From NCBI RefSeq assembly GCF_028641065.1, contig NC_073410.1:5828001-5892000 (forward strand): a DNA stretch of 64,000 nt, written 5' to 3'. The notes under the pieces are model-generated. The model was given only the letters and a program-made list of their open reading frames with translations, had not been told where the DNA came from and did not search any database. Below, piece after piece: positions 1,561 through 59,789 of this stretch (position 1 is the stretch's first letter; each line of letters opens with the position of its first letter). The stretch is from Leucoraja erinacea. Lineage: Eukaryota. The translations under genes were made by a program, and so were the position numbers.

Positions 1561-3776
1561 TCAATCAAAAGAATTTGACACACAGCCAAATAACAAGACA
1601 AGAATAACAACAAGATGTGATAAAATCCTCGGTCAAAGAGATAAGTTTGAAGGAGATGGAAAAAGTTCGGACCAAGAGTTTTAGGAAGTAAAAGTCCAGA
1701 GGCCAAGACATGTAATATTTTTCATGTCTGTTTCAATTCTCACCAGAATATTTTTATACAACATGTTTTTAATTAATTTTTCATCATTTAATGTAATAAA
1801 ACATTTTTTTCCTGTCATGAAGTTCTCTTATTACCACGTGGAAACATTAAAGTGCTGAAAGGGTTTGTTCCCCCCAGATATCAACCAACCATTTTGTTAT
1901 TTTTAAGATGAAGCAATGCACGAAAAAATAGAGCAAAACTATCTGAAAGAAAGACAATGAAATAGGGGGATAAACTGCAAATCATAGTTCAAAAAGATGC
2001 TGTAGTACTCCCAGCTCACCAATTTTCACCCAGCTCACCAATTTGGGAAATGAGAGGGGTGGGTGGAGCAGTAAATAGTCCATTAAATCTGGACATTGAG
2101 TCGTAAAATCAAAAGAAATCTGAAAACACTCAGCAAATTAGAGAACAGGACATTCAGAACTGTCTTTGAACTGGTTAGTACCACAAAGAAATGTTCCCAG
2201 CATTTTAGACTTGTATAACACAGAAACTGGCATATTTGTTCCACCAAGTTGATGCCAACCTTTTGCCATCTACACTAATCCCATTGGACTGCATTGGGTC
2301 CATTTCTTTCTCTGTATGCCTTGCCTATTTAAGTGCTTTCTAAAAATGTCTCTTATATATCGTGATTGGATCTGACTGAACCATCTCCTTTGGCAAAGAG
2401 TTCCAGATACTGATCTTTGAATAACATTCAAGGAAGAATTGAATGGATAGTTTGTGATTTTGGAACCAGGTAATTGCATTACAGAATCTTATCCACCATG
2501 CACTTTAGTCAATTAAAGCGAAAATGGATACATTGAAATCTGATGTTCAGCGCCAGAAAAAAAACAAAGGAATGCTGTGCTTTTTTCCCCCAAGGAAGGG
2601 AATAATTCTTTGGTTCAGAATTTCACATTGTGTACAGTATCCAGAGACCAATGCTAATGCTCCCCACTGTACAAACAACGATAACAAATCAGTTGAACTA
2701 ATCATTAACTATAAACTATCTGACAGCAAAAAGTGTGTTTTTCAACGGGCAGATTGGTTCTCATGAACTGTTTGTCTTCTCAAAGTACATTTTATTTCAG
2801 CTTAGTCATAATTTCAGTAACTGACAATTTATCCCATGAAATGTTGCAAGTCTTGATTTATTTTACCCTGAAGTAAATCAAAGCACATCATAAATTCACA
2901 TACTTTGTTTTATGCGAACAAAAGGTTCCTTTTTCTCAGTATACTCTCAAACTGAAGGAAAGGGCATAGCCAGATGTGATGCTCCTTGGTGATGCTTCTG
3001 TTGAAATTATTTCTTTACTTCATGGATTCTTGGACCAGCTAATGTTTACATTAGAGTATGACCAATGATTGTGAAAGAATTGGATAAATAGTTGAGACAG
3101 ATGTTAAAAGCAATGCAAAGTGGGTCTGAGATAAGTTTTGAACGCTTCAGTTTAGTTTAGTGTCACGTGTACTGAGGTACAGTGAAAAGCTTTTGTTGTG
3201 TGCTAACCAGTCAGCAGAAAGTCAAAACAAAATTACAATCATGCCATTTACAGTGTATAAATACATGATAATGAAATAACATTTAGTGCAAGGGAAAGCC
3301 AGCAAAGTCCGATCAAGGATAGTACGAGGGTCACCAATGAATTAGATAGCAGTTCAACATTGCTCTCTGGTTGTGGTAGGATGAGGAACTGTGGAGAGCT
3401 GAAAGGTTCCTGTGTATGTGTACAATTGTAGTGGAATAGATTCTAATTAAAAATACATAAAATAAGACAGCTGCGAGATATTCCATTGGCAAAAGACAAG
3501 GAAAATGTAGGTATGACAATAAGCAGAATGCTGAAGGAAAGATATTAGACTTCCATTTATTTGGCACTTCTTCACATAACCTATTGAGGTATTTCAGCTA
3601 CAATATTTTAAATGCTGTTTGATTTTGCAGAACAGCTAACAAAATATGCCAAAGAAGATCAAGGAAACAGAAATGTAATATGTCAGTTAGTATATGATAT
3701 TGATTGAGGGAGAAATGTTGCCCCAAATAGTCATAGAAAATTCATTTTCTTTTACAGAAGTATGAGATGGTTAACA

Positions 3777-3984
3777 CAAAATGCTGGAGTAACTCAGCGG
3801 GTGAGGCAGCATCTCTGGAGAGAAGGAATGGGCGATGTTTCGGGTTAAGACGTCGCCCATTCCTTCTCTCCAGAGATGCTGCCTCACCCACTGAGTTACT
3901 CCAACATTTTGTGTCTACCTTCGATTTCAAGTTCAAGTGAGTTTATTGTCATTTAAACCAGCATCTGCAATTCTTTCTTACACA
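3777..3984. mobile_element. Short fold-back Penelope-terminus-derived insertion
   Basis: Inverted arms of about 60 bp; 16 bp TSD tatgagatggttaaca at 3761-3776 and 3985-4000. Confidence 0.8.
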
Positions 3985-6330
3985 TATGAGATGGTTAACA
4001 TCCATCTGAACCTTTTAGGATTTCAGTAAAGCTCTCATCTAACAGATAACATCTTTAACAATACACCACTCCTTCAATTCTGCATAAGCCTTTGCAATCA
4101 TATTCTGGAATGGGTCGTGAATGTTCAGGTCCTTAACTCAAATATGAGAATAGACTCCACAAGCCAAAACAAGCTTGCAAATGTAGAAGCACCTGTGGCA
4201 TTTGTTTTTGTCTTATGTACGTGTTTCCACACGTGGATCATTCAAAACAGTTTGAGAAACATATTCTGAACAAATGCACAACTATGATCAGAATAGCCAG
4301 CTTTTGCCACCACCTGGTGGCTAACATGAAGAATTTATCAGTAACATTCTTCCTATTCTTAATATTTATCCCCAGCAAGAAAAGACAGATAAAAACGTAC
4401 ATGTGCATTTCTCGCCCTTTAGATTCCACGTAATGATGATAGTTGATAAATCAGCTGATTCTATGTTAGCAATAAATCAAACCAACAGAAGCAACATATG
4501 AAGATCACATTCTGTTTCAGGAGAAGTAATTTACAACAAAAATATATCCAAAGATATGCAGTTACGTATTATTCCCTATCTCTGCTTGAATTACCACATC
4601 TGATGTTTTATTTTTACATTATAATATTGACCACATTTGCTTTCTAAACTTAGTAAACTTACCTGTGCTGATTTATTTTTTTGCCCTTCCAACATTAAGG
4701 ATGAGTGTGTTTCGATTAATTGAAAGATACATCATGGAAATAGCCCCCTGACCCTCCACTGATAACTTTTCACAGGATAACATATCAGTGCTATGTAATC
4801 CACCTTTCACATCCACTCCTTACACACTTGGGGCAGTTTACAGAGGCCAATTAACCCACAAACCCTCTCACCTTGGTAATGTGGGAGGAAACTGGAGCAT
4901 CCAGAGGAAACCCATGCGGTCACAAGAACATGTGCAAACTCCACACAGACAGCACCCGAGGTCAGGATTGAACCCAGGTCTCTGTTGCAGTGAGACAGCA
5001 GCTCCACCAGCTGTGCCACTAGGTTGCCAATGTTCTTGAAGCCTATTCCCATTATTTGTTTGCCTGTACAACCCCAAAGACAAAGAGGGAATTTTAAAAG
5101 ATGTTGAAGACCTTGAAACTCAAAATAAAATGTTAACATATTCCAAGAATGGTAACAAAAAGGAAATCATAGGAAAGTTGACAATGGTCAGAAATTATCA
5201 TTTTTTAAATCAAGGACTTTAAATTGTCCTGGGAGAAATCCCAGTGATAGGCATTCATATTAAAAAACTACTGGAACTCAGCAGTCCAGGCAGCATCTGT
5301 GGAGGGAAATGAATAAATCATGTTTCAGGTTAGGACCCTTCTTCAGACCATTTCCGTCCACAGATGCTTTTGGAATTTACTGATATGTCTTTTTGAAATT
5401 TGGAAGAAGTCAAATTAATAAAAGTAGCTTTTTATGATGCTATTCTTTCAACATTCTTATTTTTTACACACTGAATTTCATGTTGAAACACTGTACAGTG
5501 ATTCAGAAAATAAATATCTTCTTTGATGCACGATAAGTTTGCCCCGCAGACAATGAGGTGATTGCCATATGCCAGCAATATCCTGTAAACACCCCTGAGA
5601 TGAATGGAGACACATGAAGCTTTTATTTCTGGGATAAATGTTGACAAGTCATGTACGTGTCCTTCAAGCCATGGGACAACTACAGCAAGGCTGACCTTTT
5701 CTTTCTAGTTTCCTGAGCCAACGAGGAGAAGCGGATCATGAGATCCACCCATGCAAAATGTTTCTGCTATAAATAGTGGCACCACTATTCCACAACTGAT
5801 CATGCCTGGAGACCACACTACCATTAGCAACCAGGACTGATTTTGCACACAATATACCTATCGTGTAACTGTCATTCACTAACAACTCGACTGATACTCC
5901 CATCAAACTCGAGAGGCTCTCTCTCTGCTATAATTTTAGTTACGCTTGGAGATATTATTAGACGATTATATTTCTTTAGTTGACATGTTGCATAAATAGA
6001 CTGCTACAGTTTTGAATGAATATAAAATACAGTTTCACCTTGCCTCCAATGTGCGATTACTGACACTAGTGGGCAGTCAATTTCATTGATTTAGATGTGT
6101 AAGCAAGATTGAAGTGACAGGTCACTTCCAACCTAACTTATAGACATTTCAATTATCAGTATTCATATGCAAACCACGGTAAAATGTAGAAAGAGTAGTT
6201 GGAAGAATGGAGCTAAAGTACATAAAGTAGTGCACATGGACTTCACAGACCATTATCTATGCCTTTCGCTATTGTTGTTAGAAGAGTGAATATTGTGGAT
6301 AGTCAAATGTATTGACTAACATCCTCTTAC

Positions 6331-7140: not shown

Positions 7141-7980
7141 TGACTGAAAACGTGCTATTGTGTTAAAGGAGCTGTCTTGTTAATGAGATGTTAACCCATG
7201 AAATGTCTGCTCTCACATATGAAGTAAAGTTCATATGATTAAGTACGGCACAGTGGAAAGTCTTGCTTGCACAGCATTCCAGGCATATAAACCTAAAGAA
7301 TGTAAAGCTAAAAGAGCACGTTGTTCTAGAATAGATTATCTAGTTATTATCACACTGCTGCTTGAGGTAGCCTGCAATGTCTCTAACTTAGAGTCATACA
7401 GCACGAAAACAGAACCTTCAGCTTAATTCGTCCATGCCGACCAAGATGCCCCATTGCTACTAGTCCCTTTTGCCTGCACTACACAGCAGTCACCACAATT
7501 CATTGAGTGGAAAGTGCTCTGGGATCCTCTAAAAGAAAGGTGAAAGATACCATGCAAATGCAGCAAGCATTTGTCTTCTTTTTTAGAGTTGGAGCCAGTC
7601 TGAAGAAGGTTCGGCCCAAATCGTTGCCTATTTCCTTCGCTCCATAGATGCTGCTGCACCCACTGAGTTTCTCCAGCATTTTTGTGTACCTTCATCTTCT
7701 TTTTTAGCCTCTGCACAAAACTATACTTGATACTCAGCGATCCTTTATGTCCTAAAGTTCAACATTGTTTGCCAGCCTCATTCAACAGCAAAACCTGAAT
7801 CCATGTCCACAAATAAAAAACACATAAAACATGAAAAGCATGAATCCAATCTGCATGGCAGCTATCAAGTCTTAGATTTTAAACCAGGAGATATTCAATC
7901 CAACAGGTCAGTATGATATGAATATCACAACCAAATCACTGCTTTGCAATTCACTGTCAGTCTCCATTTGTATTTCTTAC

Positions 7981-8050: not shown

Positions 8051-8777
8051 GTTTGACAAGTGCATAAGGATTTGAACTTTGGTCTTTGTTTTAAAAGGCA
8101 AGAGCAAAGTTCAAAATCAGATAAATGGCTGCAGAAATAATCAAAGTAATTTGCTTTATGTGAGCACAATAAATTAGATATTCATATTTCAGTTTACACC
8201 TAAAGTCCTAACGTAATCCATAGAATTTATGTAACATTTGGCTATCTCTATTTGCTACATCGCATTTTTTTTCCATTTCAGTTAAACTCTCCATTAAGTT
8301 AATGTATAATTAAGGTTTGGGTTACTGCAGTTATAAAATTTCCTGTAATAACCCTACTTTCCATTCTGTCGACACTTTCCAAAGTACTTCACAGTTAATA
8401 ATGTTCAAGCATATTCTCAAAGCCCAATGGAGGTGGTGTACCATCCACACTACTTCTCAGAATCCGCAGTTTGTGACCACTCAGGATGGTTTAGGAATGT
8501 TCAGACTGGCACTATGAACTTTGCGCCCATTTGTCAGAAGTACACAGAAGCCCAAAGCAAATGGCAGAGGGAGTTCACCACTTCCCATTGACTCACCTGC
8601 CAAGCACCTCTTGTCCAGAGTCCCACGTGAGCCTCATAGTCTTCTCTGAACCCACCAAACTGAAGTGGAAGCAAGTCATTCTTGATCCTGTTGGAGAATG
8701 CTGATTTACATAAAAACACACAAAGTGCTGAAGTAACGCTTCTGGTCAAGCAACATCTCTGGTGAACGTGGAGAGGT

Positions 8778-8805
8778 GACATTTCGGGTCGGGACCCTTC
8801 TTCAG
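8778..8805 (-). ncRNA. Hammerhead-like motif (variant stem III)
   Basis: Minus strand reads GU-CUGAAGA-A-GGGU(CCCG)ACCC-GAAAUGUC-AC. Confidence 0.5.
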
Positions 8806-8999
8806 ACGGTGATCGTATGGGTGACATCTCTAGCTGATAAAGAAGAAAACGTGCTGAATAAATAGGATGTTAATGTAACAGTTCATGGTAATGCAAGTTG
8901 TTGATGTAAAAGCACTGTATAAACACGTCATGTTTCTTGCCCTCCTGATGCTTTGATCGGTGCTTCCAGTATTTTCTGTTTGGTGTACGATCAATTTAA

Positions 9000-9270: not shown

Positions 9271-10714
9271 AACCAAAATACAGTGATAAAATGTTGTTGC
9301 ATACTGACCAGTCAGCGGAAAGACAATATATGATTACAATCAAACCATTCACAGTGCACAGATATGTGATAAGGGAGTAACGTTTAGTACAAGATAAAAC
9401 CAGTAAAGTCTGATCAAAAATAGTCAAAGGATCTCCAAATGAGGCGGATAGTCATTCAGGACTATTTATTCTCTAGTTCTGGTAGAGAGTACCAGAGAGT
9501 TCAGTTGTCTGATAATAGTTGGGAAGAAACTGTCCCTGAATCTGGTGGTGTGCATTTTCACACTTTTATACCTTTTGCCTGATGGGAGAGGGGAGAAGAG
9601 GGAATAGCCAGGGTGCAACTAGTCCTTGATTATGCTGCTGGCCTTGCCGAGGCAACGTGAGGTATAAATGGAGTCAATGGGAGGTTGGTTTGTGTGACGG
9701 TGCGGGCTGCGGCCACAATTCTCTGCAATTTCTTGCGGTCTCGGATGGAGCTGTTCCCTGAAGCTGTGATACTTCATATGTTAATAACTGGCACTAGATT
9801 GCAACTTCTCCGTTCTGCGTGGAATGGGACACAAAGACAATGACAGTGAATGTGTTGCTGGCAAATTCCTCAGATGGCTTCCGAGTGCCTGCCACATGTG
9901 TCAAGGTAAGGACAATGATTGTGTTGACAACTGATACTGGCTGGCATCTTCTGAACTTCACATGGATCGGAATGCAAAGATAGTGACAACGAATGTGTTA
10001 ATAGCAAGGTAGACAAAAGTGCTGGAGAAACTCAGCGGGTGCAGCAGCATCTATGGAGCGAAGGAAATAGGCAACGTTTCAGGCCAAAACCCTTCTTCAG
10101 ACTGGGGTAAATCGGAGGTATAATGCTAAAGACAGTGGGCTTGTTAAATGGCAAATATTAGCTGCTGTGTTGGTTTGAATTGAAGACTTTATTGTCACAT
10201 GTGACAAGTCACAGTGAAATTCTTTGCCTGCATACCCAGTTAATGAATTGTACACTTCCAACAGCTTTTTTTTTTCTTGGTTCTTGGTTTCTTGGTCCTC
10301 CAAAATATTCCAAATGGAATTTAAACTGGTGAAGGGAGGACTTAAGCCAGAGTTATTGGGAAGAAAGAGCTACTTTAAATTTAGTTGCATCTGGCTGGGT
10401 AACTATAGTAGGGTGGAGATTATTCCATGCTTTAATTGTGCGGGGGAAGAACGAATAGCTGTACACATCTGTAGCAGTATCTCTGGAGAGAAGGAATGGG
10501 TGACACTTCGGGTCGAGACCCTTCTTCAGTCCGAAGCATCACTAATTCCTTCTCTCCACAGATGCTGCCTGTCCCACATAAGTTACATGAACTACTCCCA
10601 CAGAAGGTAGTTGAGGCCACAGTTCATTGGCTATATTTAAGAGGGAGTTAGATGTGGTCCTTGTGGCTAAAGGGATCAGGGGGTATGGAGAGAAGGCAGG
10701 TACAGGATACCTGC

Positions 10715-11317: not shown

Positions 11318-11440
11318 TTACTCCAGCACTTTGTGCTTGTCTCTGGTTTAAACCAGCATCTGCAGTTCCTTCCCACACACACACTTCACCAGGAGGTCAG
11401 ATTCAAACCTGAGCGGCAGTTGACGTTCTGTACGCGGTGT

Positions 11441-11760: not shown

Positions 11761-27305
<15,545 letters not shown>

Positions 27306-36106: not shown

Positions 36107-36223
36107 GAAGGGTCTTGACCCGAAACGTCGCCGATTCCTTCTCTCCATGTATGCTGCCTCACTCACTGAACATTTTGTATCTACCTTCGATTTTACCAGC
36201 ATCTGCAGTTCTTTCTTAAACAA
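36107..36223 (+). mobile_element. Short Penelope-terminus-derived insertion nested in CR1
   Basis: 14 bp TSD aacttggtgaatct at 36093-36106 and 36224-36237; starts within the hammerhead motif. Confidence 0.8.
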
Positions 36224-38505: not shown

Positions 38506-39104
38506 TGTGAACAAGATTAATTGAAAATAATGTTTCCAAAAACATGCATTAAAGATGACGATATCAGCTAGTGTCAAGGAATAAACATTTTTTTAAAAAC
38601 ACAATCCCACATTTTTCCTTTGGATGATTGATACAAACTATCAAACAAAAGGAAGGAGAGGGAAGGTGTAGGAAGGAACTGAAGATGCTGGTTTAAACTG
38701 AAGGAGACACAAAAAGCTGAATCTCAAAACCAAAAAGAATTTTTCCACACAGGAAGGTTTGGAAAGTTTTTTTTAATACTGAAAATCGGGTTTGAATGTA
38801 TTCAAATTGGTTGGTTGACTTTGTGGATCAAACGTTTAAAGCAGAAACAAGTTAAATACCACAGTATTATTATTTACTATTAGAAATGCACAATGACTTG
38901 TCTTCTTCCCTTCTCCAGTGCTATGAAGGAGACACAAAAAAAATGATATCTACCATTATGAAGGTCTTCAATGTGGAAAATATCCTGACGCATTCTATTT
39001 TTTCTTTGTGGCTAGCCCACATAAAATACCAAAGTGATGCAAAGAAATAACATCCACCCACTATCCAATCCCACCAAATGAGTCACTGCAGGATTTCAAG
39101 ACAG

Positions 39105-42200: not shown

Positions 42201-45200
42201 TGGAGGACCAAGAAACCAAGAACCAAGAACCTCACAACGGGTAAATGAGTGTAGTTATAATTTGGTTGCATGAATATACTGTTGAGAAAGGACCAGTCAA
42301 AATTTGCTGTTGAGGGATGTAGGAGCAAAATGTACAAATGACTAAACATTAATCAATAAGCTCACAAATAATACCAAACTAAGCAATGGGACATTTTAAA
42401 TTTCAATGAATATTGGATTGCATTTAGAACAATGCACAAATATGGTGTCCATATAATTAACAAGATGGAGAAACATTGAGAAATATACTAAAACAGAGAG
42501 ATATTGCCAGAAATAGAAAAAAAATACGGATCAGGATCGATTAAACAGGCTAGATTCTCATTGAAAAATGTTGGCAGGTCTGAAGAAGGGCCCTGACCTG
42601 AAACATCACCTGTCCATGTTCTCCAGGAATGCTGCCTGGCTGGCTGTTACTCCAGCATTTTGTGTCTTATTGGAATGGATGGGATGAGGCTCCCATTATT
42701 GATGCAGACCATTTAGGACAAAAAGCTGTACATGCGAGGAATACGTGATAATCTATACAGGATACAATTCTGTGCCACAATTTCAAACAAGCTGTCAATC
42801 AGTGAAGCAAACACAGGCAAAACATTGGCACACAAGCATGAGGCATCATATATTGCCAACTGCTGAGGCAGTCATTATTCTAACAGGCACATTACACTGC
42901 AAATGCTGAGTTCTGTCTGTAATCTTCCACTCCATATAATCAGTAAGGAGCTGATTACCAATGTTGCAGAATCCAGCCAGTGCACTGTACATTCCGGGAG
43001 GAAATTGTTTCTGACGTGCCAGCAGGCAACGTGCTCCATCAGATACCAACATGATAACCACAGGAGACATCTGTTGATAATGAATCGGAGGAAGAACTTA
43101 GCATTTACATATCGTTACAAATGATTGCAATGAATATTTAGAACAGCAGGTGAGCTCACATTGCTAATCACTTACTAATAAATCAGGCATTGGTTAATCA
43201 AAAGCCCACTGAAGGTATATTGTATAAAACAGGGACACTATGATAATTAGGAACAGGCCATTTGGCATCTCATGTCTAGTGCACCATTAAATAGGATCAT
43301 TTGTAATCTTCTCAGCACTACATTCCTACACTCTCAGTATCCCTTGATATTCTATCTGTTGACTGAGCCTTCTCAGTGTTTTTGGATGAGAAATTTTTAA
43401 AAATCATCATCCACAAAATGTCTTCAGGGAGGAAGCGGCCGCTTCAGTCCAGGCCGCTGAAGAATGTTCACCTGACGCCGATGATCCAGCTTCGCGGCAG
43501 AGGGCCTGAGAACATCGAGTTGGCTGAGGAGGCCACATATAGACCCCGATCTCGGGTGGACTATGAGGGGGAGAACTGGATATTTTTAGTGCCTTCCCTC
43601 ACAGTGAATTCTGCTGTGGGGGGACGTTTCATGTTGATTTCTATAGTGTACTGTTCTGTGTCTTTTTTTCTTTTTTTTTTTTTTTTTTTTCTTTTTTTTT
43701 TTTTTTCTTTTTTTTTTTTTTGTTTTGTATGGATATATTGACATTTGGTCTGTTCTATTAATTTAATCAAACTCTGTAAAGCACTTTGGTTCAAATACTG
43801 GTTTTGTTGAAAAGTGATATATAAATAAAGATTATTATTATTATTATTATTATTATTCTCATCTCTGCCATGAATGGTTGCCTCCTTATTTTGAGATAGT
43901 AAACCCTGGTCCTACATACTCCAGCCAAGTGAAACATCAGGACGGCATTATTTTATCTGACAATCTTGTATATTTCAATGAGATCACAAATTCAAGAGGG
44001 TATGCGTCAAGTCTGCTCAATCTGTCCTCGCGTGACAAACATATTGTAGCTGGAATCAATCTGGTGAACCTCAATCAGAAGAATATCTCTCCTTAGGTAG
44101 GGGGACCATTCAAATGCAATAAATAAGCTAGGAAATATAAAGTTAGCTGTGAGCTAAGCAGAGCCATCCACAATGATTATCGTGTGTAGTAAGGAACTGC
44201 AGATGCTGGTTTACACTGAAGATAAGACACAAAATGCTGGAATAAGTCAGCGGGACAGGCAGCATGTCTGGAGAGAAGGATGGTGACGTTTCGGGCTGAG
44301 GCTTGTCTGAAGAAGGGTCTTGACTCGTAAAGTCACCCATTCCTTCTCTCCAGAGACGCTGCCTGTCCCGCTTAGATACTCTTGCATTTTGTGTCCGTCA
44401 CAATGATTACCTGTGGGTAATAGATTATTTCATCATTGCCACAGATTCGTTTGCTGCCGGATGCATTTTTCTGTGTCGGTTTTCCAGTTCTGCTGCAGTA
44501 GAGGTGTGTGCTGTGCCAGCGGAGAAGAGCCTGTGCCTAAAATACATCACATTATTGTGCCACGTATTCTCCACAAGTAGTCTGATCCAAAATATAAAGC
44601 TCAAAAGACAAAATACAAACTCAAGAATATCGATCTTAAATTTAAATTGTTAAAATCCTTTGTACCTTTGCAAACCCTTTTCACCATTCAACTGCAGAGG
44701 CCGGCAAAGGAAAAATAATCATCAGGATTTACCAGAATTTTTTTTTTAATGCACTTCTCAATTCATAGTCATGTTCAAAGTCATTAGTTTAGAGATAGGG
44801 TGTGGATGCAGCCGCTGGAACACAGTACAGCACATGAACAGGCCCTCGACCCATAATGTCTGTGCCATAAATGATACCAAAGCCATCACTTAACCACTTG
44901 CACATAAGCCATATCCCTCCATTCCCAGCCTGACCATACGCCAGCGCATTTCAGGTATTTACCACACTGTTAAAAACCTGCCACGCACATCTCCTTTAAA
45001 CTTTGCCCCTCTCACCTTAAAGCTACACCCTCTAGTATTTGATTCGATTGAACTTGCATTCATTTATATTTTTCCAATTTGGTGCTAAATGCAATCCACA
45101 GCAATACAAAAAAACAAATCCTCAGGCGCAGTCCTCTTTCTTACAGTTTGGCTTTCTTCCCAACCAATTGTTCAAGTGCTTTTGATTGCAACATGCGCCT

Positions 45201-48200
45201 TAATTTAGTTCAACAAAGAAACTGACAAGTTACTAAAGATCCTTTCCAATAAGTAAACTGGCTGTTCAGCCATGGTGAGTTATAGAGTGAAGCAAACACT
45301 TGGTTCAATAAAAGAAGTCTTGCCTCTGAATCAGAACTTTTCGGATAAGACAGATTCTCACAGCAGAGCCCGACTTCAAATTAAAACTGTAATGATTCTG
45401 CCATTTCAGTTTTTAATAAAGTTCTGAAAGCAACCTAACTCTGAGAAGTATAATAATATTGTAACTAAAAATATACGACACACATATATCCTGCGTTAAT
45501 AACACTGTGAGGAAGCGCATCCACCTCCTTTCCTCCAACACCCCTTCCTGTTTCAGCTAGACATCAAAACTATCTAAATTTGACATTGGCTTGCAAACAA
45601 TGAGACATGTTTCTAAATGTTTAATATTTGTTGAAGTTTTGCTCTTACCTGAGATATAAGGGATATATCATTTCTGTCTATGATGGTACAAGCTTTCCGA
45701 AATGCAAGAAACTTTCCCTTCAGAAGTAATTCTGCCCGGGCCTGTTCAGATTTTCCTTGTAGAACAGACAGGTTAGAACGTTGTCAGAGCACAAGAAGCG
45801 GGAGCAGGAGAAAATCATTTGGCCCGTCCACCATCCAACGATCACAGCTCGATGCAACTTTCCAACACTGAGCCCATATCCCAGGTTTCCCCATAACATT
45901 CCAAAATCTGTCAATCTCTGCCTTGAATATACAAGGTGACTGAGTTCCACTGACTTCGTCAATGGGGAATTACAAAGATTTACTCCCCATCCCCCCCCCC
46001 CTCCCCCACCCCCCCCCCCCGGTGAGGAAATGTCATGCTCTTGCAGTCCTGAGTGACTGCTCTCACCATGACACTGTGACCCCTGATTCTAGACACTCCA
46101 GACAAGTGAAATAACATCTGTGCATCTATCCTGCGCTACCAATGAGAATTGTGTACTTTTTCAATAAAATCACCTCTCATTGTTCTTTGCCGCATCTGCT
46201 TCATCCTCATCTGATATGATAAATCAATTAATCTGGGAATGAAGAAACCAGGATGCTGATGCAGGTTTGCAAAATAAGGCAGGAAACTGAAGGAACTTAG
46301 TGGGTCAGGCAGCATCTCAGGAGAATGTGAATAGATAGAGTTTTGGGTCAGGACCCTTCTTCATACTGATTATGTGTGGGGGGGGTGGGGGGGTTGGGTG
46401 AAGGGGAGGAAGTTGGAAGAGAGAAGGGGTAGGAGAAAGCCTGGCAGGTAATAGGTGACTCATGTGAGTAGGATCATTTGATAGGCAGATGGTTGGACAA
46501 AGGCTAGAGAGGAAAATCGAAGGTAGACAAACGTGCTGGAGAAACTCAGCGGGTGCAGCAGCATCTATGGAGCGAAGGAAATAGGCAACGTTGCCTATTT
46601 CCTTCGCTCCATAGATGCTGCTGCACTTTGGTCTACCTTCGATTTTCCAGCATCTGCAGTTCCTTCTTAAACGCTAGAGAGGAAAAGATAGAAGGTGAGA
46701 AACAAAAGGATTGAAGAGTTGTGAATTGTGGAAGGGGAGTCCATGTGGGGTGCAGGGGGAGTTGGGGGAGGGGGGGGGGGTAGAAGGGGAGTTGTATGGG
46801 GGAATACAGGAGAGGGGGAGGGTTATGTAGTTACCTAAAACTGGAGAATTCAATGAATTCAATTAGTTGGGTTGTAAGCTACCAAAGCGGAATTGGAGTG
46901 TTGCTCCTCCAGGTTGCATGTGGCCTCACTGTGGCAATAGAATCAATATGGTGAACTTTTTTTGCACTCCCTCTATGGCAAGAAAACGCTTCTTTGGGTG
47001 GGAAAACCAAACCAGTACACAACATTCCAGGTGCAGGCTCTCACTACAGTCCTATATAATTTGCAATTAGCTCTGTATACAAATCACTATAAGTTAACAC
47101 GCAGGCACAGGTAGTGAGAAGAAAGGCTAATGGTAGGCTGCCATTTATTGAATGAGGATTTGAGTACAAGGGTAGCTTATACTCAATAGAGAGCTAATTG
47201 CTCTGTCATTGCTCGGTCTCTGCGATCATGAACACCTATCACTTCCCCGTTTTTTAAAAATGCTTTTCTTTTTGTTTAAACCAAAGTAGATGACCAAATT
47301 TTTCTACCTTACAATCCATCAGCTATGTCCTCACCATTTATTTAGCTCATCCATATACCCAAAAAAGCCCCTTTTTAACAAGCTTAAAATATTTCAGTGG
47401 TGCTAAAAAGGTTCTAAGGCTATGCAAGAATGTCAATGAAAAGAACAAGTCTTGCTTAATCTTAAATAAACAAAGTGGTTTATCCTATCTCAGGCAATAC
47501 ACATTGCATGCATTATTACAATATGTATGAGGGAGTTCAGAAAATATGTTTCTCAGTGTAAATCTTTATATGCATTAAACTATATACATGTGTGTATGAT
47601 AGTCCAGCAAAGACGTACATTATAATGTATTGTAAGATAGTTGCATCAAGCTGTGTGCAGACCTTTGATAATAATCTTACCTATATCAAGTGCAAACTGT
47701 GGCACAAGACTCTCTGTGCAGCCAATTAGCACTGATTCCTCCGTCCACCTTTCTGCCAGGTCCAGCTTCTTAAGCTCTGGAACAGAAGATAATCTGCTTT
47801 AACACATCAGTTTGTGTAGGAAGGAACTGCAGATAGACACAAAAAGCTGGTATGACTCAGCATCTCTGGAGAGAAGGAATAGGTGACCTTTCAGGTCAAG
47901 AACCTCCTTCAGACACACATCAGTTTGTTTGCTACACTGAAGGAGACGAGCTTTCAGGGTGCTCAACTCGGAGTGCAGATAAATCATGGGACAGTCACAT
48001 TGTCATTGAAAAGAGGATCAAGCCTTTTCCTGCTTCATTCCCACATTGTAAAGTGCAAGAATTTGTCAATGAATATCCGGTCAGTATGGTCGATCCACCA
48101 GAGAAATAAACATTGTTTATGGTGCATTTGAGAGTTGATGTATTTGTGTATGGCCTCTGGACTCCTCTTATCATAATCATTATTACTAAATAAACAGCAG

Positions 48201-50678
48201 AACTATTTGGAAGTATATTTTTCAAGTAATTATAATGCAAATTGGTATCCAAAAATACATTATGGTTGGAGGGGAATAACCTATATGGAGGACATGGAGA
48301 AATTAGGAAGAATGCTCTCTTCTTCAGAACAAGATAAATAACCACTTGTTGAAACGTTTCAGCCTAAGTAGATGTGGCTCATGCTTAAGTTGAGATATTC
48401 AATCTGTTGGTGACCCTCGGACATCTATTTTCAGCTTCTGCAGCTCCTAGGTGACTGCTTTTCTCCAGCATTTATACCTGTTGCTGTCACGAATGGTGTC
48501 GTGTACTTGTTCTCAATCTTCTGCACAAGTGGCAAGAGATCATGAAAGAGCAGGAAGGTTCCGGAGCTGAGAGCCTTGCGGCAGGCTTCATCATCCTCTT
48601 TCAGCTCAGAGAGGTGACTGCAATACAGTGAAAAATGACAGATATTTAATGTAAACATGATCTACATCATCTCTTCCATCTTTACTAATATGCATTAGTA
48701 AACATGCAGCCTATCAGATGCTAACATTTCCCCCTGCTCTCTGATATACTGCACAATGAACCATTATTTGAAGGTTTGCAAGCCTAAAAAGCAACAATCT
48801 GCTGGAAGAACTCAGTGATTCAAACAGTATCTGTAAGTGGAAAGAAATGCTTGGCGTTTCAGGATAAAACCCTGCATCAAGACTCAAATCGTGATGCAGA
48901 ATTTTGACCCAAAATGATAACCATTTTCTCCCACCCACAGATGCTACTCAACCTGCTGAGTTCCGTCTGCAGATTGAGTGTTGCTCCAGATTCCAGTGTC
49001 TGCAGTCACTAGTGTCTCCGTTGTCAAGTCAAGGGATGACTTGATCAAAGTTTTTAAGATATTGAGGAGAACTAGAGTGTTTCTTCAAGTCGCAGCGGAG
49101 CAACAAATTAGCCCAATGATGCTTCATATAGCAACAAGCGTCAACATTTCAGGAGGTCACAAGTAATAGGAGTAGAATTAGGCCATTTGGCACATCAAGT
49201 CTATTCCACCATTCAATCATGGCTGATCTATCCCTCCCGCCTAACTCCATTCTCCTGCCTTCTCCCCATAACCCCGCCACCCGTACTAATCAAGAATCTA
49301 TCTATCTCTGCTTTAAAAATATCCATTGACAGCCTCCACAGCCTTCTGTGGCAAGAAATTCCACAGATTCACCACACTGACTAAATAAATTCTTTCTCAC
49401 CTCTTTCCTAAAGGAACATCCTTTAATTCTGAGGCTATGACCTAAAATTCGCACACAAGTGGAAACATCCTCTCCACATCCACTCTATCCAACCAAGCCT
49501 TTCAGTATTCAGGACGTTTCAATGAGGTTCCTCCCTCATTCTTCTAAACTCCAGTGAGTACAGGCCTAGCGCCGTCAATAATAAGTTATCATCATAAGTT
49601 AACCCACTCTTTCCTGGGATCATTCTTGTAAACCTCCTTTGGACCTTCACCAGGGCCAGCACATTCTTCCTCAGATATGGTACACAAAAGGGTCGTGATT
49701 AAATTTGTTTCCTTCTCAGGGTTTTAAGTGGCCTGTGTGAAATTGCATGGCAATGAACAATTATTTAATAGTAAGAGGAGATTCTTACTCATTCTGAGAA
49801 AGCCAATTGGACCATTGGATCCACGTTGACTCACGGAACTATACACGTATTCTCTCACACGTGTCCAACTTTGATTCTTTTGACACCTCACCTACACAAG
49901 CGTTAATCTACAGTAGCCAATTTGACCTTCTGGATGTCTTTGAAATGTGGGAGGAAACCAGAGCAGCTAGGGGAAACCCACAATATCACAGAGAGAGCAT
50001 GCAAACTCCACACATTCATTGCACAAATGGAAGTTTGGCCTGAGTGGCAAATGGAAATCTCTTGAAATTGGCAATGACAGTTTTGATACCTTAGTGTTAT
50101 CAATTTTAAATTGCATCTGCCGTGTACTTTGCTTGTTGGACCATTGGATCCACGTTGACTCATGGAATTATACACGTATTCTCTCACACGTGTCCAACTT
50201 TAATTCTTTTGACACCTCACCTACACAAGCGTTAATCTACAGTAGCCAATTTGACCTTCTGGATGTCTTTGAAATGTGGGAGGAAACCAGAGCAGCTAGG
50301 GGAAACCCACAATATCACAGAGAGAGCATGCAAACTCCACACATTCATTGCACAAATGGAAGTTTGGCCTGAGTGGCAAATGGAAATCTCTTGAAATTGG
50401 CAATGACAGTTTTGATACCTTAGTGTTATCAATTTTAATTTGCATCTGCCATGTACTTTGCTTGATATGCAGAACTATGCAAAATCTGGAACATTACTTT
50501 TAGTCAAAGAATGATGTTCCATATTTTGTATGGCTCAAACCTGAAGGGGCCAGTCGTTAGTACACAATGTGACTGAATAGATGCATAAAACTTACCGCAT
50601 CCGATTGACATAATTTGAAACCATTCTGCAGGATAACTGGAGTGCCGGTGTGTTGAAATTCCTCAAAAAGAAATGCAT
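39105..50678 (-). CDS. NUDT13: NAD(P)H pyrophosphatase NUDT13, 8 coding exons, 329 aa
   Basis: complement(join(39105..39275,40651..40805,42959..43070,44411..44536,45649..45755,47681..47776,48478..48617,50596..50678)); 990 nt open, GT-AG introns. Nudix box [23 protein letters not shown] and NADH-hydrolase motif SQHWPFPNS are present. [15 protein letters not shown] and AQALLRWH match NUDT13, and the gene is convergent with ECD as in human. Confidence 0.95.
40209..40399. mobile_element. Short fold-back Penelope-terminus-derived insertion with hammerhead motif (40272-40298)
   Basis: 14 bp TSD cttgattggactat at 40195-40208 and 40400-40413; near-perfect inverted arms. Confidence 0.82.
40651..40805 (-). 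CDS. NUDT13: NUDT13 coding exon 7
   Basis: [17 protein letters not shown]...[17 protein letters not shown]. Confidence 0.94.
40990..41293 (+). mobile_element. tRNA-headed SINE with (CTAAA)n tail
   Basis: A-box/B-box-like head and conserved body. Related copies lie at about 4790-5025 (-), 13370-13580 (-), 18930-18995 (+), 55300-55590 (+) and 58400-58620 (+). Confidence 0.7.
41717..42150. repeat. Polypurine (G/A) low-complexity tract
   Basis: Almost exclusively G and A, with many GGG runs. Confidence 0.9.
42959..43070 (-). CDS. NUDT13: NUDT13 coding exon 6
   Basis: [37 protein letters not shown]. Confidence 0.93.
44180..44398. mobile_element. Short fold-back Penelope-terminus-derived insertion beside a NUDT13 donor site
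   Basis: 11 bp TSD cacaatgatta at 44169-44179 and 44399-44409; inverted arms. Confidence 0.8.
44411..44536 (-). CDS. NUDT13: NUDT13 coding exon 5
   Basis: [42 protein letters not shown]. Confidence 0.93.
45649..45755 (-). CDS. NUDT13: NUDT13 coding exon 4
   Basis: [35 protein letters not shown]; donor gtaag; acceptor chosen by phase. Confidence 0.82.
46245..46942 (-). mobile_element. Penelope-like element 3' end (degenerate GIY-YIG C-terminus, 3' UTR, terminal repeat)
   Basis: Minus strand reads [30 protein letters not shown]-stop (frameshifted), then a pyrimidine-rich UTR and the same terminal sequence as the short elements. Confidence 0.7.
46517..46672. mobile_element. Short fold-back insertion nested in the Penelope 3' UTR
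   Basis: 14 bp TSD gctagagaggaaaa at 46503-46516 and 46673-46686. Confidence 0.8.
47681..47776 (-). CDS. NUDT13: NUDT13 coding exon 3
   Basis: [31 protein letters not shown]; donor gtaag. Confidence 0.88.
47816..47914 (-). mobile_element. Short Penelope-terminus-derived insertion
   Basis: 14 bp TSD acacatcagtttgt at 47802-47815 and 47915-47928. Confidence 0.78.
48478..48617 (-). CDS. NUDT13: NUDT13 coding exon 2
   Basis: [33 protein letters not shown]. Confidence 0.9.
49150..49680 (-). mobile_element. CR1 LINE 3' fragment
   Basis: Shares long stretches with 150-480 and the other CR1 copies. Confidence 0.7.
49807..50464. repeat. 329 bp direct tandem duplication
   Basis: 49807-50135 versus 50136-50464, with only about five substitutions seen. 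Confidence 0.92.
50596..50678 (-). CDS. NUDT13: NUDT13 coding exon 1 (possible mitochondrial presequence)
   Basis: [28 protein letters not shown] with an in-frame stop just upstream; donor CG|GTAAG; no acidic residues. Confidence 0.82.
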
Positions 50679-52670: not shown

Positions 52671-53498
52671 AATGGCCATAACATTTTTAATACTGAAGAT
52701 ATGAAAGTGAATTAGATGTCAAATTAAACTTCTTTTTATGCTTTATCTGATGGGATAAATTGCAGACTTTGATTTTTTAAATCTCAAAACGTGGTAACAT
52801 TACTACTATCTTAAGGCCAGTGTGGGAATGGGAGAGAGGAGGGGGGGGGTGAAGTGCTGAGCTTCAGGATCAGGAGGGTTTAGTCAAGTCAAGTCGAGTC
52901 ACATTTATTTATATAGCACATGTAAAAAACAACTTGTGGCTAAGGGGATCAGGGGGTATGGAGAGAAGGCAGGTACGGGATACTGAGTTGGATGATCAGC
53001 CATGATCATATTGAATGGCGGTGCAGGCTCGAAGGGCAGAATGGCCTACTCCTGCACCTAATTTCTATGTTTCTATGTCTATGTTTCTAACTCTCGTTGG
53101 CCAAAGTGCTTTACACTTGTTATAGGAATAGCACAACAAAAACAGACTGATACATATATACATTATTAATCTTTTTTCTCAATGATTAGTGATGTACAGC
53201 ACTTTGTTGCAACTATGTTTGTTTTTAAAGTGCTCTATAAATAAAATTATTGTTATTATTATTATTATTACATGTAGCCCTCACTCAGAAGACGTCAGGA
53301 AAGGCTTGGGAGTTTAGGCCGGCTGAGCGGAGGAGCTTAGTGAAACCATCGCCGAGCCTGCGCTTGGTCTCGCCGATATCTGTCGTATTTCGTACCTTTA
53401 CACTTCCTAATCTGTCTGTGTCTCCATCTCCCCCTCACTCTGTCCACCTCAAACCTCAACCATAGAGGGTGGGCCGGACTGCGGCTGCGCTGTGATCC

Positions 53499-53935
53499 GG
53501 TCAGCCAGATGCAGCGCCACCCACCGGCCGGAGGACCAACAGCGCAGCCGGGTCGGTCAGCCAGATGCAGCGCCACCCACCGGCCGGAGGACCAACAGCG
53601 CAGCCGGGTCGGGTCAGCCAGATGCAGCGCCACCCACCGGTCGGAGGACCAACAGCGCAGCCGGGTCGGGTCAGCCAGATGCAGCGCCCACCCACCGGCC
53701 GGAGGACCAACAGCGCAGCCGGGTCGATCAGCCAGTCGCAGCGCCACCCACCGGCCGGAGGACCAACAGCGCAGCCGGGTCGATCAGCCAGTTGCAGCGC
53801 CACCCACCGGCCGGAGGACCAACAGCGCAGCCGGGGGCGGTCAGCCAGATGCAGCGCCACCCACCGGCCGGAGGACCAACAGCGCAGCCGGGGGCGGTCA
53901 GCCAGATGCAGCGCCCCCACACCGGTCGGAGGACC
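53499..53935. repeat. GC-rich minisatellite, 56-57 bp unit, 7 full copies plus 1 partial
   Basis: Unit ggtcagccagatgcagcgccacccaccggccggaggaccaacagcgcagccgggtc starts at 53499, 53555, 53612, 53669, 53726, 53782, 53839 and 53896. Confidence 0.92.
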
Positions 53936-55168: not shown

Positions 55169-56846
55169 TCAGGGCTGCTTGTCCCGCTGAGTTACTCCAG
55201 CATTTTGTGTCTATCTTTGGTTTAAACCACCATCTGCAGTTACTTCCGACACATGTTGTATTTGAGTGTCAGTTTATAATCTTTGGATCCCATGGGACCA
55301 GCACGGTGGTGCTGCCTGACAGCACCAGCGACCCAGGTTCGATCCTGACCACAGATGCCTACTGTGCGGAGTTTGTACATTCTCCCTGAGACCTGTGGGT
55401 TTCCTCCAGGTGCTACAGTTTCCTCCCACCTCGGTTTACTCCAAAGGTGTACAGGTTTGTAGGTTAATTGACTTTGGTAAAATTGTCCTTGGTGTGTGTA
55501 GGATAGTGTTAGTGTGTGGGGGTTCGCTGATTGGGGTTGATTCGGTGGGCCGAAGGGCCTGTATCTCGAACCTAACCAAAACCATTTAACTTATGGTAAT
55601 ACAATGTGGAGAATTGTATTAATGTGTCATGCTAATCAAATTATACTGCTCTTCAGTCACTTGGCTATATGACTTTTTACAGATGAAAAAATAAAATTTA
55701 AGCCTATAAATTTTAAGCCTAGAATGTTTTATTTCTGATTAATACTGTTAGCTTATTTCCACTGTGGCAGAGAAAGGTATAACATTTGGCTTAATTGTCC
55801 ATATTCAGGGCCAAAATTTACTTTTTTTTCCTTGCCTCTCTTGAACTAACTGTGGATGTTGATTAAGAAATGGGTCATCTCTTTTTTTAATCAGATTTTA
55901 GTAGAGACAGGTCTTGGTCCTTGTAGTGAGTTCCAGGTAGATAGTCAAGTAGCAATATTTCTACCAGGTAGATAGTTAAGTAGCAATGTATTTCAATGTT
56001 GAATACGTGCCAGCATTCTTGGTGCTTTGTGCACGTAACAAATAGGCTCTGCAAAAAAGAATCGTGGAAGTGTGTCCCAATTGTGGCCTGGATTTTTGTT
56101 TAAAAAGAAGCAAATAAAAGTTTACAAAAATACTCAGCACTTTTTTACCCCAATCACAAAATACTGTAAAATTAATTAGAAATCCCACTGATTAAAATTC
56201 CTATTTTATTTTTGAATCTTGTGAAGGCTCAACTTATTACTTCCAACCTCATCTTCCCTTAGACATAAAGCACAGAAACAACATCTATGGGTCACGACAC
56301 GAAACGTTGCCTATTCCTTCTCTCCATAGATTCTGCCTCACCTGCTGAGTTTTTCCAGCATTTTTTGTCTATCTTCAATTGTTCCAGCATCTGTAGTTCT
56401 TTCTTAAACAAGCAGAGAAACACGTCAGGTTGTCCAACAGGACTGTGCTGGTGATGAATTACATGAGTTTCCTTCCGCTTAATCTCAACCACCCTACATA
56501 ATATTGTTTTCATAGTCATAGAGTCTTACAGCGTGGAAGCAGGCCCTTCGGCCCAACTTGTCCAAACCGGGCAATATGTCCCACTTACACTAGTCCCACC
56601 TGCCTGCATTTGGCCCATATATCTCTAAACCTGTCCTTTCCATGTACCTGTCTAAATGTTTCTTGAAAGTTGTGATAGTACCTGCTTCCACTACCTCCTC
56701 TGGCAGCTTGTTCTGTACACCTACCATCTATTTTCATGAAAAAGTTACGCCTTAGGTTCCCATTAAATCTTTCCCCCCATCACCTTAAACCTATGTCCTC
56801 TGGTTCTCGATTCTCCTATTTTGGCAAAACACTCTGTGTATCTACC

Positions 56847-56947
56847 GACATCAGTCTGAAGAAGGGTTTCGGCCCGAAACGTCGCCTATTTTCTTCGCTC
56901 CATAGATGTTGCTGCACCCGCTGAGTTTCTCCAGCAATTTTGTGTAC
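56847..56947 (+). mobile_element. Short Penelope-terminus-derived insertion nested in CR1
   Basis: 13 bp TSD ctgtgtatctacc at 56834-56846 and 56948-56960; intact hammerhead core. Confidence 0.8.
56856..56883 (+). ncRNA. Minimal type I hammerhead ribozyme motif (Penelope-associated)
   Basis: CUGAAGA-A-GGGU(UUCG)GCCC-GAAACGUC: complete core, stem II hairpin, and palindromic ACGU in place of stem III. Confidence 0.65.
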
Positions 56948-59789
56948 CTGTGTATCTACCCGATCTGTTCCTCTAGTGATTTTGTACATGATGTACATTT
57001 TGTCATGATTTTCTCTCGTACTTACCTGGTTTCAGTGGCATTTATTCTTCTAGTATCTGCCACTTTTCTGTGGTAACAAAGGTTGCAAGGTGCAATTATC
57101 GCATTGCTCAACAAGCAGGTTCGTATCTGCAGTTGTGAGAATGGGAAAAGTAAGAAGTGAACAAATTTATTCTGAGATGAGTCAGATTGACCCTCTGGCA
57201 AACAACTGAGTGAAACATTATGGGAGATTGGTCAAACAAATAAATTATGTATTATTTTTGCCTGGTTTTATGAGGCTGTACAGAGCCTTTCTGGGGGAAA
57301 ATGCATAGGTACAGAATCAACCCATTCCTAACCTGAAACCAATTCAGGGAGGCCTAACGTTAGAGGCCATCTATGTGGCTTGAAGCTGAGGGAGATGGTC
57401 TTACCTATGCTTGAATGAATTATTTTCTGGTAGGGTTTGGTATATTTTAATTTATTGGGCCTCAGGACTTAGAAAGGGTTACTTTAATGCCATTCATTTG
57501 GCGATAGCTTTTAAATGAAAATTCTAGAGTTACTACTGACAGTGTGAGGTATTTAAAACCAAAGAATTGAAAACATTTCCCTTACGTGCCCCACAAAAGT
57601 TAAATACATAAAAGGAAACTCCTGCTGTTCATCCAGTCTGCCAAGAAAGCTAAGCATAACCCAATTAATAAGCTGGTAATAGGATTTTCCTTAACATTTA
57701 CAAGACAAAAATCTAATTTTGCAATCATCTCTCCATATAAACAAGGTTCTACATTTGCACTCGACTTATCCCAAGCTCCAAGGAGGTTTCCAAATATATT
57801 TTGGAAGGTGGATAAGATTTTTAAAAATGTAAGTATAAGTGCGTTCTTGGGTAGTAGTCATGGAATATTGAGAGATCATCTTACAACGTAGAGACTTTCC
57901 TTCTTTAAGTAAAATCTATCTCTTTACAATTTTGGAATAAATCCCAGAAAATATATTTGGTCTCATCCTCTTCCTAAATTAACGACTCAAGCAAGCCAAG
58001 ACTATAGAATATTATGGCCCTACCTTGTCTCACGGAGCTTCTTAACAATTAGATATTGCCCAAATGCACAGTGTTTCACAGTTGTATATTGTTTTGCTTC
58101 CCCACTAGTTAGCAAATGTAATTAAAAACACGATAGATGAGGCCAGCTTTATTTTATTTATGTTTGTATCATGTGATTTGAAAGTACCCATCATGTGTTG
58201 GAATACTAATGATGAAATGTCATCATGGATTTACAAACAATTAGTCATGTTTGGGACAATGACCCATCATTTATTTATTTTCCTCTGTACGACACAATTT
58301 GAGATTTGTAATAGAAAAAATCACATGTGGTTAAAGAGCACACTGTCAGATTTCATTTGACATTTTTATGCATTTTGGTTTCACCATGTAGAAATTACAG
58401 CTGGGTGCTTGTCTGTGTAGCGTTTGTACGTTCTCCCCGTGACCTGCATGGGTTTTCTCCGAGAACGTTGGTTTCCTCCCACACTACAAAGACATTGGTT
58501 AATTGGCTTGGTATAAATGTAGAATGATGTCCCAAGGATAGTGTTAATATGCAGGGATCGCCGGTGTAGGTAGGCTGAAGGACTTGTTTTCGCACTGTAT
58601 CTCTAAAGTAAACTAAACTAAAATCACTGTTATCATTATGTTACCGGCAACAGTGGGCCATGTCACTCTGGGCTCATCACCCTGCCCAGAAGTCTACACT
58701 CATCTGAGCCAGAGTCCAGAGACAGTGGATGGCCACAGACACTGCCAGCAGCAGCGAGTCTGGAGCAAGTCTCATTTACCTATTACCCACTATACTTGCT
58801 GATCAATATCGGCTCCAGAAATATCAACACCTGAGATTTAAAGATTCTTCTTCTCAGGTGTAAATCCAGAAGAGAGATTCGTTCTCCTTTGGTTTAAAAA
58901 TATTATTTTCTCTTATTACACTCTGCAAGATGCCCTGCGATATTTCACTGCACCTAAAACGCAGGTTGTTGATACTCTGAATGATTTTGAATTTCGGGTG
59001 GGTATCCAAGTGGATGGATCTTGCCTTATTCACTGGAAGTGGCTTATGATTGATGGGTACCGTGAGTGATGTAATGTTTTATTTGTACCAAACTAAACAT
59101 TTCAATTCAAGGTCAGGTTATAGTGCTCCCTAAAATCATTGCGCTGATCTCATCAATCAGCTCAAGTGAAATAGTACGTTCTTTTATACAATGCTGGAAA
59201 CTTTCCATGGCTAACGGATAATACATTATTCAGGATAGTAACTGATTTATTATTAATAATTTGAGGTCAGGATATCTTGATTTCCCCCCAAAATGTCAAA
59301 TCTTACTTATTGGATCGTACACCTACTTGCAATGTACATCCATTTTATGTGTCATTTCTTAACCGTTTTCTTGGGTAGACCCACGGGCACTCTCTATAAT
59401 ATTTGGTCACATAACCTGAGACGTTAGTAATGTTTCTGGAATATTACATAAATATATAGTAACACAATTTATGTTCCACAATATCAGGTATTGACCAAAA
59501 ATACAGTATGCCTGTGTGCTTTATGGGAACCAAGGCTATGAAAATATACAAAACTGGGAGAATAGTGACCAGGAGAGAGAGAGAAAGCAAGAGATTATCC
59601 ACAGAGCTGTGGCTTCGCAATATTGGGGTAAAATGGAAGCTCGGAAGGGAAATACTGGCGATCAGGAGTTGTGTATTTTCACAGAGCATGGGTCTAGTTT
59701 GGTTGAACAACAGGGATCAGCTGCCAGGAAATGTTTTAAAGTTTATAGTTGCCCAGTTAAGAGGTATCCTGTTGTAAGTGTAATAGACA

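Follow-up and report, generated by a model that had tools for sequence, protein, structure and literature searches.

A dense family of short insertions in and around ECD and NUDT13

The stretch of DNA analysed here, hereafter the window, comprises 64,000 nucleotides of the skate Leucoraja erinacea (contig NC_073410.1, positions 5,828,001 to 5,892,000; about 40% G+C and about 60% A+T). Two genes were mapped onto it, ECD on the + strand (13 exons, 11773 to 27302) and NUDT13 on the - strand (8 exons, 50678 to 39108), and short insertions bearing a minimal hammerhead ribozyme motif are scattered through their introns and surroundings. The dispersed family described in a first-pass annotation of the window was borne out. 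Six window copies used as BLAST queries returned 32 merged intervals, from which 28 loci were retained after joining two halves (21404 and 21481) and dropping short matches of 21-35 bp at 25830, 55053 and 63816, a density of about one insertion per 2-3 kb. All derive from one family unit of ~134 nt, consisting of the hammerhead (+1 to +32), a body and a 3' extension, or tail; +1 denotes the G of the GUC preceding the CUGA box (56854 in copy 56847), and the family consensus extends 5' only to -6. With the tail-only pair at 60328 set aside, the arm set holds 37 arms from 27 loci, 10 of them head-to-head pairs and 17 single-arm. The arms share 67-92% identity with the majority sequence and fall into two subfamilies, of which subfamily B is the younger (its copies are 90-99% alike).

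Target-site duplications (TSDs) flank many of these loci. The seven named previously are all real (16, 14, 14, 11, 14, 14 and 13 bp at 3777, 36107, 40209, 44180, 46517, 47816 and 56847, respectively), and two more were found, at 7587 (13 bp) and 30006 (9 bp). TSDs of at least 9 bp, variable in length from 9 to 16 bp, thus occur at 9 of 28 loci against 4 of 400 random intervals, a comparison that is partly circular in that element bounds were hand-set after inspection of the loci. Together they amount to 118 bases with an A+T content of 65%; that of the window is about 60%. At 56847, where the copy lies within another repeat, other copies of that host repeat carry the target site once (joint 56813-56948; loose end 56818). 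No two inversion junctions or internal deletions in the window are alike.

A decaying minimal hammerhead motif

The majority sequence contains the hammerhead core boxes, an extra base after A9 and before stem II, a G10.1-C11.1 pair and a palindromic 15.2-16.2 in place of helix III. A strict descriptor of this motif matched four times in the window, whereas 200 shuffles gave 0.005 matches on average. The same features define the minimal hammerheads of metazoan Penelope-like elements (PLEs) (Cervera and De la Pena 2014, PMC4209133; here and below, published systems are described from the available portions of the papers cited), and the Penelope affiliation proposed for the family fits this motif as well as the anatomy described below. 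Helix I is only 2 bp long, a length shared with D. virilis, and helix II is 4-5 bp long, the corresponding lengths in Schistosoma being 4-5 and 7-8 bp; the skate copies differ from the published motifs in lacking compensatory changes and in the frequency of GUU (PMC4209133). The available text of that paper and of its supplement names neither skates nor sharks. An Rfam search, suggested in the first-pass annotation, gave no hammerhead match at E<=10; miRNA-like Rfam matches were discarded as scoring below the gathering scores and reflecting the hairpins.

The five stem II variants reported earlier (GGGU-CUCG-ACCC, GGGU-UUCG-GCCC, GGGU-CCCG-ACCC, GGGU-CUUG-ACCC and GGGU-CUCG-AUCC) are all present. 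That the family shares a hammerhead at its 5' end or hairpin apex is correct for the motif as such and not for each locus named: 3777 and 46517 lack the CUGA box, the box is broken in 36107, and only 15 of the 37 arms span the whole core, which is intact in three. The first of these three, at 56847..56947 (+), is a tail-less single-arm copy running from -6 to +91, with C3 at 56856, a predicted cut after C17 (56883) and a 13-bp TSD at 56834-56846 / 56948-56960. The second, at 12059..12178 (-), is likewise single-arm and tail-less, carries CUGAUGA and GUC, continues upstream for ~20 pyrimidine-rich nt and lies in ECD intron 1, antisense to ECD. The third, at 10006..10106 (-), is a tail-less single-arm copy of subfamily B with GUU at the cut site. 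No TSD was found at either of the latter two.

Stem II had been noted to vary while staying paired, as if selected in the copies, and this argument did not survive closer analysis. Across the 15 arms the stem changes are all one-sided, to G-U or U-G, with both sides changed in none of six pairs, and pairing in the copies does not exceed that in shuffles. The G-U pairs are an automatic result of transitions in the 3' strand, the commonest of them at a CpG site. The expected excess of core conservation is present in raw form (0.937 in the core versus 0.870 in the body; permutation p 0.007-0.015) and is absent from private mutations, whose rates per base are equal (core 0.045, body 0.051, tail 0.053; Fisher p 0.87). 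Variants shared by three or more arms occur at 0 of 10 core sites and 29 of 98 other sites (p 0.06). Selection on the copies was accordingly rejected as the source of the higher core conservation, private rates being equal and part of the tail being as conserved. We read the hammerhead as selected in the source elements, with the copies decaying neutrally.

Catalytically competent copies in host introns, as suggested earlier, were not found in sense orientation. The only intact copy within a mapped intron is that at 12059, antisense to ECD, and neither 10006 nor 56847 falls within a mapped gene; a Pfam scan of 80 of 138 open frames placed no host gene around them. Cores are broken in both single-arm sense copies in NUDT13 introns and in the core-bearing sense copy in ECD. 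The monomer hammerhead fold is predicted to lie 7-10 kcal/mol above the best fold, in a model that ignores core contacts. At 56856-56900 the purine-rich core can pair, in both subfamilies, with a pyrimidine run just 3' of the cut site, a predicted competitor hairpin that would leave the hammerhead unfolded. Position 17 (56883) is U in about half of the reads and in most subfamily-B copies, and the younger subfamily B may carry a GUU cut site. The family is a warning that minimal hammerheads of this type in genomes are mostly passengers in decay rather than active ribozymes.

Copies tend to begin at the ribozyme edge and end in two classes

The favoured starting point of the copies lies just ahead of the ribozyme motif rather than at its predicted cut site. 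Sixteen arm 5' ends fall in 158 arm-bases at -10 to +8, compared with 20 in 2608 at +9 to +100, a ratio of 13 (binomial p 3e-11, with the two arms of a pair treated as independent). A TSD or an inversion junction delimits 10 of the 16. For example, the single-arm tailed copy at 47816..47914 (-; NUDT13 intron, sense) starts at exactly +1 directly after its 14-bp TSD, with a mutated core and internal deletions. This agrees with the earlier suggestion of 5'-truncation or inversion products that begin preferentially at the ribozyme. Ends at the cut site are not enriched (3 at +29 to +38, p 0.33), and the copies therefore do not appear to be delimited by cleavage. Arms starting at +1 share no first exon upstream.

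The 3' ends of the 37 arms fall into two classes, 16 at +83 to +101 and 15 at +125 to +134, with six elsewhere. Their separation of ~40 nt matches the 30-40 bp tail found at one end of PLEs, elements in which 5' truncation and an adjacent inverted copy are also frequent (PMC8557442, PMC3846280). Among the 10 head-to-head pairs, exactly one arm is tailed in seven, neither in one and both in none, the remaining two being decayed. Within the seven, the tail-less arm extends further 5' in four (3766, 12481, 22938 and 44182), the reverse holds in two and one is a tie; in those four, neither arm is a copy of the other. Since each arm then holds sequence absent from its partner, two priming events on RNA are favoured over fold-back copying of one cDNA. 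In all 10 pairs the arms resemble each other (0.82-0.98) more than they resemble other loci (medians 0.75-0.83), and the inversion apexes fall on the hammerhead hairpin or its palindrome.

The individual pairs display this asymmetry in different forms. At 3777..3984 (16-bp TSD 3761-3776 / 3985-4000) the tail-less arm reaches +13 and the tailed arm starts at ~+27; the tail of this pair is interrupted by about 25 unrelated bases at 3930-3955. At 40209..40399 (14-bp TSD; NUDT13 intron) the tailed arm starts at +1 and the tail-less arm at +35, and at 30002..30223 (9-bp TSD) they start at +2 and +6, respectively. The pair at 44180..44398 (11-bp TSD) has its tail-less arm from +1 and its tailed arm from ~+20. 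It is inserted ~12 nt into a NUDT13 intron (44169-44411); the TSD takes in most of the splice-donor region, from intron position +2 onwards, and duplicates it. One arm is also tailed in the pair at 12481..12667 (ECD intron 1; no TSD of at least 9 bp found) and in a short pair without hammerhead at 22938..23024 (ECD intron), while both arms are tail-less at 21404..21529 (ECD intron). The two decayed pairs, at 10470..10586 and 5255..5395, each retain one arm reaching the edge, to +1 to +3 and from 0/+1, respectively. Fold-back loci have long inverted arms and predicted folding energies of -98 to -126 kcal/mol; those in introns would give long double-stranded RNA from either transcribed strand.

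A longer copy and its open reading frame remnant

The first-pass annotation had entertained a distinct family unconnected to longer Penelope copies. We found otherwise at 46254..46945 (-; NUDT13 intron, sense), where a long old copy with a mutated hammerhead and body extends ~570 bp upstream, through a pyrimidine-rich untranslated region (UTR), into a broken open reading frame (ORF) end. A young 170-bp head-to-head pair (46517..46672; one arm tailed, 14-bp TSD, apex at the palindrome in the stem III position) is nested in this UTR. The ORF remnant, at 46831..46945 (-), comprises about 36 broken codons in three frames, with two frameshifts and a stop. Its translation resembles, by eye only, the E...N end of a Neptune-type GIY-YIG endonuclease, being closer to the Neptune than to the Poseidon rows of that domain end (Fig. 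S2, PMC8557442). This is the one arm among the 15 core-bearing arms in the window that runs far upstream; together with many reads that share upstream sequence, it indicates that longer copies exist.

DNA and RNA reads

We examined four read sets from the best-matching species label on 56200-57050, namely DNA contigs, bulk oligo-dT RNA (covering 5% of the run), single-cell RNA (covering 1%) and RNA-like contigs. The family proved very abundant, with a bulk RNA depth near 10,000 over the hammerhead and equal strands. In the two RNA runs no pile-up of molecule ends reached a fifth of the depth or more, the predicted cut site and position 0 included, a weak negative from which low-level cleavage and non-polyadenylated RNA would escape.

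The loose ends comprise two populations. Among the six positions listed per run, with 2522 more beyond them, the bulk RNA had 1207 before +1 (agreement 0.34) and 1435 before 0 (0.42), both with mixed flanks, and 1656 before -2 (0.50) with a common pyrimidine-rich upstream sequence; those of the single-cell run (2779, 1328 and 1110; agreement 0.59-0.65) have pyrimidine-rich upstream sequence in common. Joints of tail end to hammerhead occurred in 4+4+5+4 DNA contigs and, in bulk RNA, in one read each at two listed joints against a depth near 10,000. Longer copies are therefore common and tandem units rare. Joints 'going back 571-575' were considered as circles and rejected, as the reads switch between two homologous copies in 56200-57050.

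A few DNA contigs contain a 35-40 nt hammerhead unit head-to-tail (56850-56891), with one joint beside the predicted cut site, and dimeric ribozymes could form at a minority of loci. At the hammerhead end (56838-56895 and 56287-56344) one strand outnumbers the other by 6-8:1 in the single-cell run, a bias that is not seen in the bulk RNA.

Origin of the copies

That hammerheads reside in Penelope ends is known biology, met here in one more lineage; the unusual point is where the copies begin. In vitro, the reverse transcriptase (RT) of a lizard PLE initiates at a pair of internal sites that mark the two ends of the tail; nicking and extension take place on both strands of the DNA, and insertion is just as efficient when the hammerhead is inactivated (PMC11167929). 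We think it probable that the skate loci are likewise the terminal module, pseudo-long terminal repeat (pLTR) plus tail, of an autonomous and probably Neptune-type PLE, copied from two internal starts and mostly by run-off just before the hammerhead, which does not appear either to cut or to define the copies. The endonuclease would nick the two target strands 9-16 bp apart. One nick priming at the tail end (+134) or the tail start (~+95) would give single arms, and both nicks priming, one per site, would give two cDNAs joined head-to-head, often at the hammerhead hairpin or palindrome. Copying would stop near 0/+1, where a transcript from the upstream pLTR likely begins, at an initiator-like TCAGTCT whose A falls on position 0, and priming in the downstream pLTR would yield the longer 5'-truncated copies. 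Penelope of D. virilis is known to have an internal TATA-less promoter (PMC2377424). Selection would maintain the hammerhead in the source elements only.

Closely related systems share much of this anatomy. Truncated and inverted insertions of endonuclease-positive PLEs have a terminal-repeat hammerhead, a 30-40 bp tail at one end, a head-to-head partner with a palindromic apex, TSDs and heavy 5' truncation (PMC8557442, PMC3846280); the skate arms differ in being mostly ~95-134 nt long with a sharp 5' step at the upstream edge of the hammerhead, and the available parts of those papers report no such step. The PLE minimal hammerheads catalogued previously are mostly single dispersed motifs attributed to truncated PLEs, with some close opposite-strand pairs (PMC4209133). 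The Poseidon element PAc of Anolis also has a hammerhead ~110-150 nt before two tail-delimiting RT start sites, and no RNA ends at its cut site (Frangieh et al. 2024, PMC11167929); in contrast, the skate ORF remnant is Neptune-like by eye and most skate copies lack an AUG in the hammerhead. Our literature search, which left Dfam, Repbase and most subscription papers outside its reach, found no description of a skate or shark PLE hammerhead family or of a 5'-end step.

Several points weigh against the proposed origin as a terminal module copied by run-off. The enrichment at the edge rests in part on paired arms, and 5' ends at -5 and -6 are lower bounds, the consensus ending at -6. The initiator consensus with which TCAGTCT is compared matches 1.2% of positions. 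The sequence before +2 also resembles what we take to be a 3' splice site (pyrimidine tract, CTRAC, YAG), so the loose ends of the RNA, known from the listed positions, may include spliced host exons, and position 0 itself shows no pile-up in the two RNA runs. The likeness to Neptune is drawn from some 36 broken codons, for which phmmer returned three unrelated repeat proteins only and a word search zero candidates. Pattern scans for relatives with an intact ORF gave none in viral contigs and none in metagenome contigs, and neither a full-length element nor an RT was seen in the window or in these scans. In D. virilis, the Penelope transcript starts ~120 nt 5' of the hammerhead (PMC2377424, PMC4209133) and an intron ends at helix I (PMC4209133). 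PLE inversions have been explained in print by self-priming on an antisense template (PMC3846280), a reading that we favour less for the fold-backs here.

The strongest rival, which we hold to be possible while giving it less credence, accepts the same PLE origin and takes the 5' step as a barrier to copying, with RT stalling or switching template where it meets the C-rich tract, the hairpins of the hammerhead or a 3' splice site at helix I. A long C/T tract does lie upstream, the splice-site-like sequence just described falls at the edge, and the inversion apexes sit on hairpin or palindrome. The intron end at helix I in D. virilis points the same way (PMC4209133). However, the +1 arms lack a common first exon, the loose ends at that position are mixed (0.34, among those listed), and many copies cross the boundary into the C/T tract, so no strong block exists there.

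We also offer, as a speculation that we regard as rather doubtful, an extension of the terminal-module origin: that the PLE cycle is preserved, fossil-like, in the short copies, with RNA starting at the initiator, run-off cDNAs of ~95 and 134 nt primed at the two RT start sites of the first pLTR and integrated unchanged, and fold-backs made by twin priming of a PLE dimer, each site contributing one strand. The copies, carrying promoter and start sites, would then form a minimal Pol II-driven, SINE-like strong-stop class.

A dedicated short non-autonomous family, with an internal promoter and both RT start sites, transcribed by itself and re-mobilised in trans by PLE protein, appears unlikely. 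The very high density (28 loci in 64 kb), the sharp 5' boundary, the two subfamilies and the single far-upstream arm among 15 would suit it, and there are precedents in pLTR sequences sufficient for trans mobilisation in rotifers and in non-autonomous PLEs of Chlamydomonas (PMC8557442, PMC3846280). Against it, the junctions and deletions differ from locus to locus, so that no amplified short structure is seen in the window, and long copies carry the identical module type. Unlike short interspersed elements (SINEs), moreover, the family has no tRNA-, 5S- or 7SL-derived head at any locus (Rfam, E<=10).

The first-pass annotation had also raised a retrozyme, in which dimeric hammerheads cut tandem units that then close into circles and reinsert as single units. 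This is largely refuted for most of the family, and we judge it very improbable. Animal non-LTR (non-long terminal repeat) retrozymes do share the short, ORF-less, pLTR-related structure, a type I hammerhead and long TSDs, and are known as tandem repeats of at least two hammerhead units, with circular RNAs and with canonical type I hammerheads in which helix III and loop 1-loop 2 contacts are present (PMC7229834; bioRxiv 10.64898/2026.07.22.740005); they occur in one chondrichthyan genome (bioRxiv 10.64898/2026.07.22.740005), and the tail-end-to-hammerhead joints and few tandem hammerhead contigs described above would fit. The skate family, however, forms no tandem array in the window, its tail-to-head joints are rare in bulk RNA, its 5' ends are not set by cleavage and its RNA ends do not pile up. 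Moreover, about half of the reads have GUU at the cut site, the hammerhead is minimal rather than canonical (no helix III, 2-bp stem I), and copies are common in introns. Scarcely credible is an origin of the fold-back loci as DNA transposons akin to miniature inverted-repeat transposable elements, which their long inverted arms and low folding energies (-98 to -126 kcal/mol) might recall and which variable TSD length, asymmetric arms, 17 single-arm loci of 27 and junctions that differ per locus, without uniform structure, contradict.

The origin of PLE tails and inverted repeats has been ascribed either to self-priming on an antisense template (PMC3846280) or to two-strand priming from two RT start sites (PMC11167929). 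At the density found in this skate, junction statistics should be able to separate the two models; the 5' step indicates where the template RNA begins or copying stops, and the asymmetry of the arms is a further clue to mechanism.

Other features of the window

The remaining single-arm copies range from nearly complete to tail only. Tailed copies start at -2 with U4 mutated (27995..28128, -), within the CUGA box after a 14-bp TSD (36107..36223, +) and at +11 (56289..56411, +). A subfamily-B copy with a broken core has 8 extra bases at its 5' junction and a 13-bp TSD (7587..7694, +). Starts at +1 are seen in an old copy at 8698..8807 (-) and in one at 12724..12831 (+; ECD intron 1, sense) with broken stem II and palindrome, and a start at ~+1 in an old copy at 42575..42671 (+; NUDT13 intron, antisense). 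The copy at 48902..48985 (+) is strongly decayed. Tailed pieces without hammerhead comprise a 3' half (55174..55253, +) and two 3' ends (11318..11380, +; 38666..38719, -), and 18281..18318 (+) is tail only.

Outside the arm counts stands a hairpin at 60328..60425 with a tail-like core and long inverted arms. Within 60324-60429 its outer inverted arms of ~30 bp are not seen in other copies, and a search for its TSD found none. It is located within a retroelement remnant of the LTR type, of which broken pieces at 59757-61250 (-) encode an RNase H-like connection domain and an integrase zinc finger and core.

Between ECD and NUDT13, exon-like frames at 29275-34700 (-) point to a solute-carrier-type gene with an EamA domain, inside which the fold-back pair at 30006 probably sits. 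The last exon of NUDT13 shares 95% identity with a protein named for Rhinoraja longicauda, a skate, and 72% with one of a stingray. Other repeats lie at 10671-11237, 52329-52671, 46940-47033 and 56517-56830, including one further very abundant repeat; the LINE (long interspersed element) 3' fragments among them are presumably CR1-like. Tandem arrays are present at 49807-50464 (329 bp x2) and 53498-53935 (57 bp x7.7).

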